Positions 24,001 to 30,000 of a stretch of DNA of 64,000 nucleotides are shown piece after piece. Where the stretch lies: positions 19,870-83,869 of the forward strand of contig JAOUKV010000002.1 in the NCBI GenBank assembly GCA_029882355.1, written 5' to 3'. The position numbers are program-made. Positions within the stretch are counted from its first letter, which is position 1, and each line of letters starts with the position of its first letter. This stretch comes from Gammaproteobacteria bacterium. GTDB lineage: Bacteria; Pseudomonadota; Gammaproteobacteria; SZUA-229.

Positions 24001-27000
24001 AGTGAAGCTCAGCGTCAGGCAGTCAGTCAAAATAATCTTGAGACCGCTTATATCCGCCCTATGTGTTTTTATGGCTCGGAAGGTATGGGTCTGCGTGCGG
24101 ATAATTTAAAAGTACACGTGATTGTTGCCGCCTGGCAATGGGGTGCTTATCTGGGTAAAGAAGCGCTGGAGAAAGGTATTCGTATCCGCACTTCTTCTTT
24201 TACTCGACACCATGTCAACATCAGCATGTGCAAGGCGAAAGCCAACGGTCATTACATCAACTCCATGTTGGCACTGCAGGAAGCGCTGAGCTGTGGTTAC
24301 GATGAAGCCATGTTGCTGGATAACGAAGGTTATGTTGCCGAAGGCAGTGGCGAGAATATTTTCGTGGTGCGTGATGGTGTGATTTATACGCCGGATTTAA
24401 CTTCAGCCTTGAACGGTATTACTCGAAGCACTTTGTTTGAACTGGCGAGTAGTCAGGGTATTGAAATTCGCGAAAAACGCATTACTCGCGATGAAGTTTA
24501 TATCGCCGATGAAGTTTTCTTTACTGGCACCGCCGCAGAAGTGACACCCGTTAGAGAAGTCGATAATCGCGTTATCGGTGATGGCGGGCGTGGTCCGATT
24601 ACAGAAAAACTACAGACGATGTATTTCGATTTAGTGCACGGTCGTTTAGATATGCATCCAGAATGGCTAACCCTTGTTAAGTGATTCGTTGAAAAGTATT
24701 AGACAGGAATTAAAAAATGCCTAACCCTCGTACTGTTGATCAAGAAGATCTTGATGTGCCAAATGAAACCATGGTGCATGAAGTGCATAGCAATGTATTA
24801 CCAATACATTGCCCAATGCCAGGCTCAAGTTTGTGGAATTCACATCCGCGAGTTTATATTCCGGTGGAAGAAACCGGTTCAGCCAAATGTCCATATTGCG
24901 GATGTGAATACATTCTCAAGGATAATTAATCGCTGATTATGCACGTTCAAATACCTTCTTTTAAAAATGCCAAAGTATTGGTGGTTGGCGATCTTATGTT
25001 AGATCGTTACTGGCATGGCCCGACTTCACGTATTTCACCAGAAGCACCTGTGCCAGTGGTGCACGTTAGCGAGATTGAAGAACGTCCCGGTGGTGCTGGT
25101 AACGTGGCCTTGAATATCGCCATTCTTGGCGCAAAAAGTACTGTCTTAGGTTTAACCGGTAATGATGATGCCGCTCATGCCTTAGAAAAAACCTTACAGG
25201 CCTCTGGCGTAAATACGCATTTTATAAAACTCGAAGATAATGCCACCGTCACCAAGTTGCGAGTGATGAGTCGTCATCAGCAATTGATTCGTCTGGATTT
25301 TGAAGATGGTTTTATCGGTCAGGATTTATCGGCTATGGAAGCTGAATTCATCAAGTTATTAGATGATCATGACGTGGTGGTTTGTTCAGACTATGGCAAA
25401 GGCTGTTTGCGAAACATCCAAACGCTGATTGCTCTATGCAAAGAAAAAAATATTCCTGTGCTGGTTGACCCCAAAGGCAATGACTTTAGTAAATATGCTG
25501 GTGCCAGTTTGATTACACCAAATCTTTCCGAGTTTGAAGAAGTGGCTGGTCATTGCGTTGATGAAGATGACCTGGTCGCAAAAGCAGAAAAAGTGTGCGC
25601 TGAGCATCAGCTCGGTGCTTTGCTGGTGACACGCAGCGAACATGGTATGAGTTTAATCGAGAGCGATAAGACGGTGACACATTTACCGACACGCGCTCGC
25701 GAAGTTTATGATGTCACTGGTGCTGGCGATACCGTAATCTCGACATTGGCCGCTGCTTTAGCTGTCGGTCAGGATTTACCGCACAGTACCGCACTGGCTA
25801 ATTTCGCCGCTGGTCTGGTGGTGGCTAAATCGGGAACAGCCAGTGTCACAGTTGAAGAATTGCAGCTGGCAAATCGTGAATATTTTAAAGTTGAACGCGG
25901 CATACTTGATGAAGCCAGTTTGTTTAAAGCCATGGATGCCTGCCGTGAACACGGTGAAACCATCGTCATGACCAATGGTTGTTTTGATATTTTACATGCA
26001 GGCCACGTTACTTATTTGCAGCAGGCACGTGAGCTGGGCGATCGCTTAGTGGTCGCCGTCAATATCGACGAAACGGTGAGCCGTTTAAAAGGCCCTGATC
26101 GCCCGGTCAATAATGTTGATTACAGAATGACAATGTTAGCTGCGCTGGAATGTGTGGACTGGGTCGTGCCATTTACCGAAGACGAACCAACGCGTTTAAT
26201 TTGCGAATTGAATCCTGATATTTTAGTGAAAGGTGGTGATAACGATCCTGATGTTATACCGGGTGGCGATTGTATTCGTGCAGCAGGCGGGCAGGTGAAA
26301 GTTTTGTCTTACGTTGAAGGTGTTTCTACCACAGAAATTATCGGTTCGATCAGGGACAAAGGTTAAACAATTTAATGGTTACTGCTGTTTCAGTTGATGT
26401 GCTTATCGTCGGTGGTGGCATTGCAGGCTTATGGACATTGGCTCGTTTGAAGCAGGCCGGTTACAAAACAGTTTTGCTCGAAGCTGAATCATTGGGTGCA
26501 GGTCAGACACGTTTCGCACAGGGCATTATCCATGGCGGGACTAAATACGCATTAACTGGAAAGCTGACTGCGTCGTCAGAAGCTGTCGCAGATATGCCTG
26601 CTTTATGGCGTGACTGTTATAATGGAAGAGGGCCGCTTGATTTAACTAAGGCGACTTTGCTATCTAATGCGCATTATCTGTGGTCAACCTCCAGTTTAAC
26701 TTCCCGCGTCTCCGGTTTTTTTGCCAGTAAAGTAATGCGCGCCCGCACTAGCGAGCTTGATGAAAGTGTAAGGCCGTCGTTGTTCAAACATGCCGATTTC
26801 AAAGGTCAGATTTATGCATTGGATGAACCTGTGTTTGATGCCATGAGTGTGCTGAAAGCGATTGCGGAACCGGTGAAAGAATCGATATTAGCGATTAAAG
26901 GTGGCAGCCTTAAGTATGATAACGATGTGTTGTCTGTGCAAGGTCAGGATGGGCAAAGTTATGAATTCGATTTTAAAAAAATCGTACTAACGGCTGGTCA

Positions 27001-30000
27001 GGGAAATGAGAATTTATTGTCTGAATTAGGATTGAAACAGCCCGAGATGCAATTGCGGCCTCTAAAAATGGTCATGTTACGTGGTGGCCTTTCAGATATG
27101 GTATTTGCACATTGCATGGGTGGCAGTGTGAATCCAAGAATTACGATCACGTCTAACCGTAATGAGCAGGGTGACGTGGTCTGGTATTTGGGTGGGCAAT
27201 TAGCAGAGGATGGTGTTGATCGGTCTGATGCAGAACAAATTGAACAGGCAAAACTTGAGTTAGCTGAATTGATCCCCTGGTTAGATCAGTCAAAATCACA
27301 ATGGGCTACGTTGGATATAAATCGTGCGGAAATAAAGAAAGCAGGCACAAAACGCCCTGATACTTTTTTCGTAGAGCAACAAGATAAAGTGATTACTGCA
27401 TGGCCAACTAAAATGGCTTTGTCGCCTGTAATGGCCGAGCAGGTAGTCGAATTAATTAATAATGAGAAATTGTCTCGTGTAGATGCTGCTGAATTACCGT
27501 CATGGTCAATTCCTTCTTATGCGAGCCTTCCATGGAATGAAGAACAAAGGTGGTTGATGTGATTGATGTAAGACCCTTAGGCTCAACAGGTATTGATGTC
27601 AGTGTGCTGGGCCTGGGTACGGTTAAATTCGGTCGGAATGAACAGGTAAAGTATCCGCAGGATTTTAAAATTCCTGGAGATATGGATATGATACGGATCC
27701 TGGATTTAGCATGGTCCTTAGGTATTAATTTTATTGATACAGCTCCGGCCTATGGCACAAGTGAAGAACGTCTGGGTAAATTACTGGCGCAACGTCACGA
27801 CTGGGTTATAGAAACAAAAGTAGGCGAGATTTTTGAAAATGGCCAGTCACGCTTTGATTTTTCGGCCAAGCATACGCGGAAGAGTGTTGAGAATAGTCTG
27901 AGAAAGTTACGCCGTGATTATGTCGATGTCGTATTGGTACATTCTAACGGTGATGATATGGATATTATTCATCAGCAAGATGCCCTTGCGGAACTCGAAA
28001 ATCTAAAACAAAAAGGGCTGATAAAAGCATTCGGTATGTCGAGCAAGACAGTTGAAGGAGGTCTGTGGGTGGTTGAGCATTGTGATGTGGTGATGGCGAC
28101 CTGTAATCTTGAATACAATGAAGAGCAGTCCGTTCTGGATAAAGCCAAAGAATTAAACAAGGGCGTAGTGGTGAAGAAAGGCTTGTTAAGTGGTTACGCC
28201 GGTGTTGCCGCAGATGGTTCTGGTATAGAGCGATCGTTCGAGCATGTATTAAGTCAACCTGCTGTCAGCAGTATGATCGTAGGTACAATTAATACTAACC
28301 ATCTTAGAAAAAATATAGAAATTGCTCAGCAATATAGCTCAGTAAAAGATTAAATTATGTCAGAAATGCCAAGACGATATTTGATTGTTGGCCCTTCCTG
28401 GGTTGGTGATATGGTAATGGCCCAATCACTCTTTGCTACACTGAAAAAGCTTTATCCAGATTGTTTGATCGATGTTATTGCGCCTGAATGGTCTTTGCCT
28501 ATTCTTGAAAGAATGCCGCAGGTTAATCAGGGGATTGCTTTGAAAATTGGCCACGGTGAATTTTCACTGCTGAGACGAATAAAAATGGGCCTGGCACTAC
28601 GTGAGCAAGCCTATACTCATTCAATAGTGCTACCACGTTCATGGAAGTCGGCACTGATACCTTTTTTTGCAAATGCGAAGGTCCGAACCGGGTTTCGTGG
28701 TGAGATGCGTTATGGTTTGTTGAATGATATTCGTGAATTAGATAAAAACATTCTCAAACAAACAGTACAGCGATATGTATCACACGCTTATGTTGCTAAT
28801 TTAAAGCAAGCACCGGAAATTCCATTCCCAAAACTGGAAGTGGACATGATTAATCGAGGTCGCCTAATCGAGAAACTCAAGTTAGATCTAACTAAACCAA
28901 TTATTGCTATGATGCCAGGTGCTGAATATGGCCCGGCAAAACAGTGGCCTGAAAAGCACTACAGAGAACTTGCTGATCTATTGATTAACAAGGGATACCA
29001 GGTATGGCTGATCGGTTCTGCAAAAGAGAAGGCTTTGTCGAAAAATATAGTAGAAGGACTTGGTCTGGATGCAATCAATCTTTGCGGTAAAACTGAGCTA
29101 GTAGATACGGTTGATTTGCTGTCCTGTGCAGAGCAGGTAGTGACCAATGATTCTGGATTAATGCACGTCGCTGCCGCAGTGGGCGTTAAACTCAATGTAA
29201 TTTATGGTTCATCCACACCAGATTACACGCCACCTCTTAGCCCGAAAGAAAACATGAACATATTTTATCTTGATTTGGAATGTAGTCCCTGCTTTAAAAG
29301 GGAGTGTCCCTTTGGGCATACGAATTGTCTTTTTGAAATAGCTGCTAAAAATATTTATTTGAAAATGATTGTAAGCTCTATTTAGACCAAACCTTAATTA
29401 TCTAAATTTTTTGAGGTCTTGAGTAGTGTGGGTATGTGTGAGATGACATTATCAAATTAGATTGCGTGGTGAGAGTTAAGTATAAATATCTACTATTGAG
29501 GGTTATGAGTGCACCCGCAATAGTAGATACCAAAAATGATCAGTTCTAGTTATTCTTGTTTATAATTAACAGCGTTTAGAATAAGGTGTAAATAAAGGGA
29601 GCTATAGCTGATCCCTGAGTCAACACAAGAAGCGCCCCTAGCAGTAACATCATAAAAATAATAGGCGCTAACCAGAATTTTTTACGTTCTTTCATGAATG
29701 CCCAAAGGTCTTTGATTAAATCTAACATTAAAAAGGTCTCTCAATATGTTCTTTTGGTTTCTGAGGTGATTTTATTCTGTAACTAGATATTTTTTCATCT
29801 AGTTTTTTGTGCAATGGATCCTTGCCTAATATTTTCAAAATAACAGCAGTGGGTAAAAAAATAAAATAAAACATGATGCCCAAAATAATCCTTGAATTTA
29901 TCCAGCCCATGATATGGCCAAATTTCATCCAGGTTAGGAATATATGTTTAAGGCTAGCTGGGTGAATAAAAGCCCATAAAATAAGAATAGATGATACTGC

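Follow-up and report, generated by a model that had tools for sequence, protein, structure and literature searches.

A conserved flavoenzyme and aldo-keto reductase gene pair of the PA4991/PA4992 type is linked to lipopolysaccharide inner-core genes in many Gammaproteobacteria

Introduction

PA4991 and PA4992 of Pseudomonas aeruginosa belong to a family that is structurally characterised and functionally orphan. The structure of PA4991, a flavoenzyme, was reported by Jacewicz et al. in 2016 (PDB 5EZ7; PMC4741190), and the PDB entries 4EXA and 4EXB, the former a crystal with bound NADP, have been identified as the aldo-keto reductase (AKR) PA4992 (PMC3539698; Moynie et al. 2013). As described in the sections of the PA4991 paper considered here (PMC4741190), the two genes lie in one operon, both are found in the essential gene sets of transposon screens in strains PAO1 and PA14 and of a cystic fibrosis (CF) sputum Tn-seq study, and both were picked as antibacterial targets owing to this reported essentiality in P. 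aeruginosa. The same sections describe PA4991 as a monomeric enzyme of the GR2 family with bound FAD, a GlpD-like active site and less than 18% identity to GlpD and glycine oxidase. It was inactive on glycerol-3-phosphate (G3P) with NAD(P)+ and on 41 amines; the authors considered that its substrate probably bears a phosphate or a carboxylate, and its function was said to 'remain elusive' as of 2016. In the present study, a gene pair of this type is described in a stretch of 64,000 nucleotides from a Gammaproteobacteria bacterium (contig JAOUKV010000002.1, assembly GCA_029882355.1, positions 19,870 to 83,869; hereafter the window). Here the genes for a flavin adenine dinucleotide (FAD)-dependent oxidoreductase and a short AKR, referred to below as the FAD gene and the AKR gene, are located at 26375-28353 between hldE and waaF, two genes of lipopolysaccharide (LPS) inner-core synthesis.

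The part of a 2026 paper considered here (PMC13490897) cites the 2016 work on PA4991 for activity on various amino acids, none of which was turned over according to the original (PMC4741190). In the literature searched, later papers that name PA4991 or PA4992 added no function, and no paper was found that ties the pair to LPS or heptose or gives the pair a function. A preliminary description of the window had stated that no oxidase or reductase step of this kind is described for LPS core synthesis. This agrees with the literature searched, where no paper on an FAD- or AKR-dependent step was found.

Couples of an oxidising and a reducing enzyme are known from other pathways. In mycobacteria, decaprenylphosphoryl-ribose is epimerised to decaprenylphosphoryl-arabinose by two enzymes, DprE1 and DprE2. 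The FAD oxidase makes a keto intermediate, which is re-reduced by the adjacent NAD(P)H reductase. DprE1 is a flavoprotein of the vanillyl-alcohol oxidase (VAO) type, DprE2 is a short-chain dehydrogenase/reductase (SDR), and both are essential. In the 3-epimerisation of deoxynivalenol (DON) by DepA and DepB, a pyrroloquinoline quinone (PQQ) enzyme is the oxidising half and an AKR is the reducing half.

Results

Gene order and junctions between hldE and waaF

In the window, the genes zfCHCC-hldE-FAD-AKR-waaF form a co-directional run at one end of a large LPS core cluster. hldE (24939-26366, plus strand) encodes the bifunctional heptose-7-phosphate kinase/heptose-1-phosphate adenylyltransferase (NF008454, 724.8 bits against a cutoff of 521), in which both the TIGR02198 and TIGR02199 domains and the Pfam domains PfkB and CTP_transf_like were detected. 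It is followed on the same strand by the gene for a 395-residue FAD-dependent oxidoreductase of the GR2/DAO family (26375-27562; PF01266 and PDB 5EZ7 matches), the AKR gene, which ends at 28353 (PF00248 and 4EXA/4EXB matches), and waaF (28357-29385), encoding LPS heptosyltransferase II (TIGR02195, 421.3 bits against a cutoff of 134.6; PF01075).

The junctions were determined by direct reading of the sequence. The hldE stop codon TAA (26364-26366) is separated by 8 nt from the ATG of the FAD gene at 26375, the stop codon TGA of the FAD gene occupies 27560-27562, and the AKR stop codon TAA (28351-28353) lies 3 nt before the waaF ATG at 28357. Two GTG codons are available as the AKR start: the one at 27559 gives a protein of 264 residues and a 4-nt GTGA overlap with the FAD gene, and the one at 27550 gives 267 residues and a 13-nt overlap. 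The public 264-residue JGI gene call P0121 fits the start at 27559. The start is ambiguous, and public annotations differ, the NCBI call P0122 having 263 residues and implying another start position. The preliminary description had reported two redox enzymes with overlapping codons and an AKR stop 3 nt before waaF, and both the sequence reading and the Pfam matches bear this out.

Co-transcription of the pair with hldE and waaF had also been proposed there. It is likely, because the genes are tightly spaced, no terminator is predicted among them and the same spacing is found in dozens of genomes. The pair has operon-type spacing and shares its strand with bona fide core genes, and the terminator scan found no terminator-like site on the plus strand between hldE and waaF. 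The counts from the promoter and terminator scan were below the shuffled expectation, so that the scan as a whole was uninformative; it placed nothing between hldE and waaF. waaF is the final gene of the co-directional run, and the genes after it are convergent on the minus strand. The convergent intergenic region past waaF contains a 17-nt inverted repeat (29487-29529; arms 94% complementary, 9-nt loop), which may, on weak evidence, mark the end of the transcription unit; it lacks a T-run and for this reason was not called in the terminator scan.

Upstream of hldE lies a 70-residue zf-CHCC zinc-finger open reading frame (ORF; 24717-24929, plus strand; PF10276, 34.9 bits against a cutoff of 27), which is absent from the preliminary description. 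It lies between ilvE and hldE and ends 9 nt before the hldE ATG; 65 other loci have it at the same position. The transcription unit probably starts with this gene. A zf-CHCC gene (PF10276) was also called upstream of hldE in locus L167. Further upstream, the plus strand has a PitA-like transporter gene (19346-20614), glnE (20786-23695) and ilvE (23755-24684).

Relationship of the two proteins to PA4991 and PA4992

The FAD protein matched PDB 5EZ7, the flavoenzyme PA4991, with an E value of 1.4e-105, its residues 3-387 aligning with residues 4-387 of the chain. The two proteins are of the same length and 46% identical (tblastn). PF01266 (DAO family) was matched at 69.9 bits against a cutoff of 27.9, and the dinucleotide (FAD)-binding motif VGGGIAG is present at residues 12-18. 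His53, Arg317 and Lys346 align with the active-site residues His53, Arg316 and Lys345 of PA4991. These three are invariant in the family alignment and were present in 148-149 of 149 family representatives; Gln49, Lys57, Tyr58, Arg228, His246, Glu319 and Trp343 were likewise invariant or nearly so in the 149 representatives, which show 36-53% identity. Judged from these alignments, the FAD gene is a full-length orthologue of PA4991, and in both organisms an overlapping PA4992-type AKR gene comes next. The family appears to be large and old, and its unusually basic conserved residues would fit an anionic substrate.

The AKR matched 4EXA/4EXB with an E value of 8.4e-79 over residues 8-261, and its (beta/alpha)8 AKR domain was recognised by PF00248 (115.8 bits, cutoff 24). 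Asp63, Tyr68 and Lys90 align with the catalytic Asp66, Tyr71 and Lys94 of PA4992, so that the Asp/Tyr/Lys triad is kept, and His131 is present in an LVHS motif. Both are short AKRs of about 265-270 residues with 54% identity, and by the same kind of comparison the gene is a full-length orthologue of PA4992. It differs from PA4992 in its setting, its stop codon lying 3 nt before waaF. Among the PDB matches of the AKR was also a 'DON 3-epimerase' entry, 9wk1 (E 9e-15). The FAD and AKR ORFs are regarded as real genes and not as chance reading frames because of the full-length PDB matches and the conserved overlap.

The GlpD-like active site raises an alternative in which the pair acts on triose or glycerol phosphates. 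L-Glyceraldehyde-3-phosphate or a like aldehyde would be the substrate of the AKR, and the resulting G3P-like product would be oxidised by the flavoenzyme. Such a scheme would resemble the YghZ/GlpD bypass of Escherichia coli. As given in the sections of the structure paper considered here (PMC4741190), GlpD and glycine oxidase have the GR2 fold and share with PA4991 the active-site His/Arg/Lys trio (GlpD) or the Arg (glycine oxidase), and activity on G3P was monitored as NAD(P)+ reduction at 340 nm, an H2O2-coupled assay being used for the amines. The negative G3P result is weak, because a flavoprotein dehydrogenase or oxidase is not detected via NAD(P)+ reduction; quinone-, dye- or O2-linked G3P activity would thus seem to have escaped that assay. 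The N-terminus of the FAD protein also gave weak NCBIfam matches to G3P dehydrogenases and oxidases, and the AKR a weak match to the L-glyceraldehyde-3-phosphate reductase model NF007388 (E 4e-6). Against these stand the low identity to GlpD and glycine oxidase reported for PA4991 and the scores themselves. With the NCBIfam equivalog models of the GlpD/GlpA/GlpO type, the FAD protein reached 18.8-26 bits against cutoffs of 352-840 (about 24-26 bits for the GlpD, GlpA and G3P-oxidase models), and the match was confined to the first ~80 residues, the FAD-binding N-terminus. The linkage to hldE, waaF and waaA described below would also be left unexplained. A role in triose or glycerol phosphate metabolism is therefore considered improbable.

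The FAD and AKR genes as a two-gene module

The two genes form a fixed, translationally coupled module. They were adjacent at every locus that extended past the FAD gene (~165 loci examined), the distance from FAD to AKR being zero or negative in 69 of the 75 loci of the first survey described below and -4 or -1 in every measurable locus of the Pseudomonas type. An exhaustive search of 1.84 billion cluster representatives gave 671 clusters at 50% identity (E <= 1e-30), whose representatives are nearly all metagenome proteins. The named relatives are all Gammaproteobacteria: Pseudomonas-like organisms, Aliamphritea, Amphritea, Neptuniibacter, Oceanospirillum, Oceanicoccus and IMCC1989, and also Thiotrichales, Thiohalomonadales, Chromatiales and Sedimenticolaceae.

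Domain fusions were considered as a clue to function and set aside, with one informative case in 150 representatives. This is P0378, a metagenome protein of 567 residues in which a member of the FAD family carries a C-terminal GDSL/SGNH hydrolase domain, either as a real fusion or as a gene-calling artefact. The other long proteins of the family had no extra Pfam domain in the same set of representatives.

Synteny of the pair with LPS inner-core genes

In the first survey, genome contigs were scanned with the family alignment. This yielded 80 loci with 47-85% identity from unclassified marine Gammaproteobacteria, Thiotrichales, Thiohalomonadales, Chromatiales, Ectothiorhodospiraceae and Sedimenticolaceae/tubeworm symbionts. 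Every locus with enough flanking sequence had the order hldE-FAD-AKR, and the next gene was waaF (L001-L073) or waaA (L074-L079). About 70 genomes share the order hldE-FAD-AKR-waaF, with identities as low as 48%. The median gap was 19 nt between hldE and the FAD gene (50 nt or less in 48 of 76 loci), -10 nt between FAD and AKR, and 7.5 nt between AKR and waaF or waaA (50 nt or less in 48 of 62).

The coupling of the pair to core genes takes several forms. In the Sedimenticolaceae and tubeworm symbionts (L074-L078), the AKR gene is followed by waaA with a -1 overlap, and in L079 by waaA after an 8-nt gap. glnE and ilvE are gone from the neighbourhood in L074-L079 and in Pseudomonas, with the pair still near hldE and/or waaA. 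The order zfCHCC-hldE-FAD-AKR-waaF is repeated in two loci of another lineage (L167 and L169). In Aliamphritea ceti, the genes are a gmhA-like gene, waaA (minus), FAD, AKR and a hypothetical gene (all plus), hldE and msbA (both minus) and lpxL (plus); in Oceanicoccus they are tolC (plus), waaA (minus), FAD and AKR (both plus). In IMCC1989, waaL overlaps the FAD gene by 20 nt and the AKR gene follows; this waaL-FAD-AKR unit is convergent with hldE-waaC-(2-oxoglutarate/iron oxygenase)-SDR-gmhB-gmhA-like-ilvE-glnE. In Pseudomonas, Aliamphritea, Oceanicoccus and IMCC1989, the pair is flanked by waaA or waaL on one side and by a convergent hldE on the other. Thus, the neighbours of the pair are LPS inner-core genes in five of the six lineages sampled, with hldE the most constant among them. 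No kds gene was seen among the neighbours of the pair in the surveyed loci.

From this conserved operon context, we lean, tentatively, towards a role of the pair in LPS inner-core synthesis, where an anionic precursor, most likely one of the heptose branch, would undergo two redox reactions in succession. The reported essentiality of PA4991 and PA4992 in P. aeruginosa, an organism that needs heptose and core assembly to live, agrees with such a role, as does the phosphate or carboxylate that the PA4991 substrate probably bears.

The Pseudomonas-type arrangement and the question of an insertion

In the second survey, metagenomes were scanned with the PA4991 sequence, and 80 loci of the Pseudomonas type were obtained, including one (L081) that is 100% identical to the P. 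aeruginosa query. The order in these loci is tolC (plus), waaA (minus), LysR and SMR genes in some positions between, then FAD and AKR (both plus) and a conserved PA4993-like gene. A convergent hldE lies 1-7 kb downstream of the pair in most of them, followed by msbA in L081. PA4991 and PA4992 are thus situated between waaA and hldE, just outside the published P. aeruginosa core cluster PA4996-PA5012. The FAD gene of the window differs in being co-directional with hldE and starting 8 nt after it, whereas the Pseudomonas gene is divergent from waaA and convergent with hldE. The PA4993-like gene, of about 270-306 codons, is on the same strand after the AKR gene in 71 Pseudomonas-type and Aliamphritea loci (for example 12148-13068 in L081 and 10018-10830 in L161). 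Neither the window nor L001-L080 contain it, and its product had no Pfam, NCBIfam or PDB match.

In the preliminary description, hldE/ilvE and waaF were taken to be adjacent in the Pseudomonas-type arrangement, and the pair was seen as inserted between them. The first point is inaccurate: the neighbour of waaF in P. aeruginosa is ilvE, and hldE is elsewhere in the cluster, near PA4991/PA4992. The second is not borne out. The pair of the window is orthologous to these two genes, its order is kept in about 70 genomes and its GC content bears no foreign sign. It is the same module as in Pseudomonas and not an insertion into a Pseudomonas-like ancestor.

In a related proposal, the pair would be an accessory insertion confined to this lineage, its role being to decorate the core sugar of this one organism. 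The cluster does contain accessory genes, since its outer-core region at 29.5-35 kb is variable and has a low GC content. The pair, with a GC content of 0.43-0.46, resembles hldE and waaF and not this segment. The recurrence of the arrangement down to 48% identity effectively refutes such an insertion, the family extends to 671 clusters including the essential Pseudomonas pair, and no plasmid homologues of the pair were found at E <= 1e-30. This proposal is accordingly given hardly any weight, and the acquisition of the pair as a foreign insertion was rejected on the same grounds.

Loci without LPS genes and the case for inherited gene order

The pair does not reside near LPS genes everywhere. 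In one large lineage, which accounted for 70 of the 120 best matches in the family lineage search, it was found at non-LPS loci in all five places sampled, with no LPS gene within ~8 kb. Two of these loci (L164 and L168) have the order gidA, FAD, AKR and a nicotinate phosphoribosyltransferase (NAPRTase) gene; in L163, L165 and one further contig, an acyl-CoA dehydrogenase or thiolase gene precedes the pair, and rsgA, cca and a dsbA-like gene follow. The gene of the PolyA_pol family after the pair in this lineage scored best, in L163, against models of CCA-adding enzymes, its top match lying just below the cutoff. The acyl-CoA dehydrogenase neighbours were rejected as a signal, since the enzymes of Pseudomonas and of this lineage are paralogues of ~25% identity and occur at a minority of loci. 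The comparison with related genomes, suggested in the preliminary description as a check, thus gave a divided answer: linkage to LPS genes was found in many genomes, and in one large lineage the pair is at unrelated loci, with no demonstrated non-LPS function.

These loci are the first of several points that weigh against a role in inner-core synthesis. Synteny at this locus is just as strong for glnE, ilvE and the zf-CHCC gene, none of which is an LPS gene, and inherited gene order therefore explains part of the signal. The annotation of E. coli K-12 has no FAD-AKR pair downstream of hldE. In Pseudomonas the pair is on the strand opposite to waaA and hldE and forms a unit of its own with the PA4993-like gene. 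LPS is nowhere mentioned in the sections of the PA4991 paper considered here (PMC4741190), and no biochemical or genetic result linking either protein to LPS was found in the literature searched. The canonical 6-epimerase HldD is also present in P. aeruginosa.

These observations can be accommodated if the pair serves in housekeeping, as a redox or metabolite-repair module outside LPS synthesis, acting on a small anionic metabolite such as a hydroxy-acid or a polyol-phosphate, with its position near hldE, waaF and waaA inherited from an ancestral gammaproteobacterial gene order. The five sampled loci without LPS genes and the strand of the Pseudomonas pair speak for such a module, and so does the glnE-(ilvE)-(zfCHCC)-hldE block, which is itself conserved despite the unrelated functions of its genes. 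In E. coli K-12 (L170), ygiF-glnE-hldE is kept and cca is ~4.5 kb away. Since cca comes after the pair in the non-LPS lineage and is found near hldE in E. coli, these positions hint that all arrangements are remnants of one ancestral glnE-hldE-...-cca region. Passive inheritance would, however, predict less than is seen. Through at least four rearrangements, including the losses of glnE and ilvE, the distance of the pair from hldE and/or waaA has remained 0-7 kb, and the stop codon of the pair overlaps or abuts the start or stop codons of waaF, waaA or waaL. Because the coupling recurs with waaF, waaA and waaL through rearrangements that lost glnE and ilvE, functional coupling is favoured over mere inheritance. 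A housekeeping module is a serious possibility all the same, if on balance a doubtful one.

The wider LPS core cluster of the window

The pair lies where a large LPS core cluster begins; the cluster continues to ~50 kb. Convergent to waaF, at 29728-33072 on the minus strand, are genes for an SxtJ-like small protein, a carbamoyltransferase of the NodU/CmcH type and an SGNH/GDSL-like protein, with a GC content of 0.30-0.39; they look like a heptose carbamoylation or O-acylation module of the variable outer-core region. Besides waaF, there are four paralogues of the GT9 (heptosyltransferase) family on the minus strand (35025-38306 and 46019-47095), all below the NCBIfam equivalog cutoffs, and the gene at 46019-47095 is the candidate waaC. 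The extra GT9 paralogues suggest a heptose-rich or unusual core. The cluster further contains two methyltransferase genes, a GT4 gene, a GT2 gene, Ugd, a sulfatase-family protein, an LpxL-type acyltransferase and tolC. An SDR gene is present at 40209-41189 (TIGR02197, 71 bits against a cutoff of 274.6). No HldD was found in the window, and the SDRs of the window and of L166 miss the HldD cutoff, this search covering the window and L166.

The gene for the 3-deoxy-D-manno-oct-2-ulosonic acid (Kdo) kinase KdkA (47083-47805; NF002475, 241.7 bits against a cutoff of 142) is divergent to waaA (47802-49037) and overlaps it. This position suggests an inner core of the Kdo-phosphate type with a monofunctional WaaA. 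The waaA end of the cluster is flanked by a PCMT-like methyltransferase gene (minus) and thiC (plus), both in the window (51660-54409) and in the locus of a Lamellibrachia symbiont (L075, 13223-16124), which shows long-range conservation of the whole super-locus.

Discussion

For a family whose structures are known and whose function is not, what is new here is the operonic linkage of the pair to hldE, waaF, waaA and waaL, which was not found described in the literature searched. As the preliminary description had proposed, the pair could epimerise or reduce a core sugar or a Kdo derivative. Between the two branches, the link to LPS is most likely through heptose rather than Kdo, and the pair would act on a negatively charged inner-core precursor, a sugar or sugar-phosphate that belongs most likely to the ADP-heptose branch.

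An oxidise-then-reduce, epimerase-like mechanism can be drawn for the pair by analogy. The GlpD-like His/Arg/Lys site of the flavoenzyme would suit a CH-OH group beside a phosphate or carboxylate. The enzyme may convert a secondary alcohol to a ketone, for example the C6 hydroxyl beside the C7 phosphate of a heptose phosphate, and the AKR would then reduce the carbonyl with NADPH. The net outcome would be an epimerisation or a shift of alcohol and carbonyl, as in other couples of an oxidase and a reductase. The side chain CH(OH)-CH2-OPO3 of D-glycero-heptose 7-phosphate mimics G3P and would therefore suit a GlpD-like site.

The likeness to DprE1/DprE2 would be one of logic only: an FAD oxidase with an adjacent reductase, a cell-envelope sugar precursor and essential genes. 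There is no homology, the pair of the window being of the DAO/GR2 and AKR families by Pfam, and its substrate is presumably soluble. DepA/DepB may serve as a precedent for an oxidase and an AKR inverting one secondary alcohol, with similarity at the level of the AKR superfamily only. Within the LPS pathway, the nearest comparison is HldD (RfaD), the ADP-L-glycero-D-manno-heptose 6-epimerase. The pair would share with it the pathway and perhaps the target carbon, C6 of the heptose, and would likewise proceed via a keto intermediate. HldD differs in being a single SDR with tightly bound NADP and is not homologous to the pair. Since P. aeruginosa has HldD too, simple replacement of HldD by the pair is unlikely.

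In a bolder version of inner-core involvement, non-enteric Gammaproteobacteria would make their inner-core precursors by way of an essential, hitherto overlooked redox stage of two steps. The pair that carries it out would be a functional analogue of DprE1/DprE2 and thereby a defined drug target in the LPS pathway of P. aeruginosa. The glycero side chain of a heptose phosphate would, for example, be oxidised and then re-reduced, either before or after the HldE reactions. In this specific form the proposal is unlikely.

The linkage narrows the search for the substrate to heptose-7-phosphate, heptose-1,7-bisphosphate, heptose-1-phosphate, ADP-heptose, Kdo or Kdo-8-phosphate, and these candidate intermediates can be purchased or obtained enzymatically. 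Were a role in LPS refuted, the pair would stand as a clear case of misleading gene-order conservation. If the role is real, the essentiality of the pair would be explained. A step would then also be added to a textbook pathway worked out largely in Enterobacteria, in which the pair appears to be missing.

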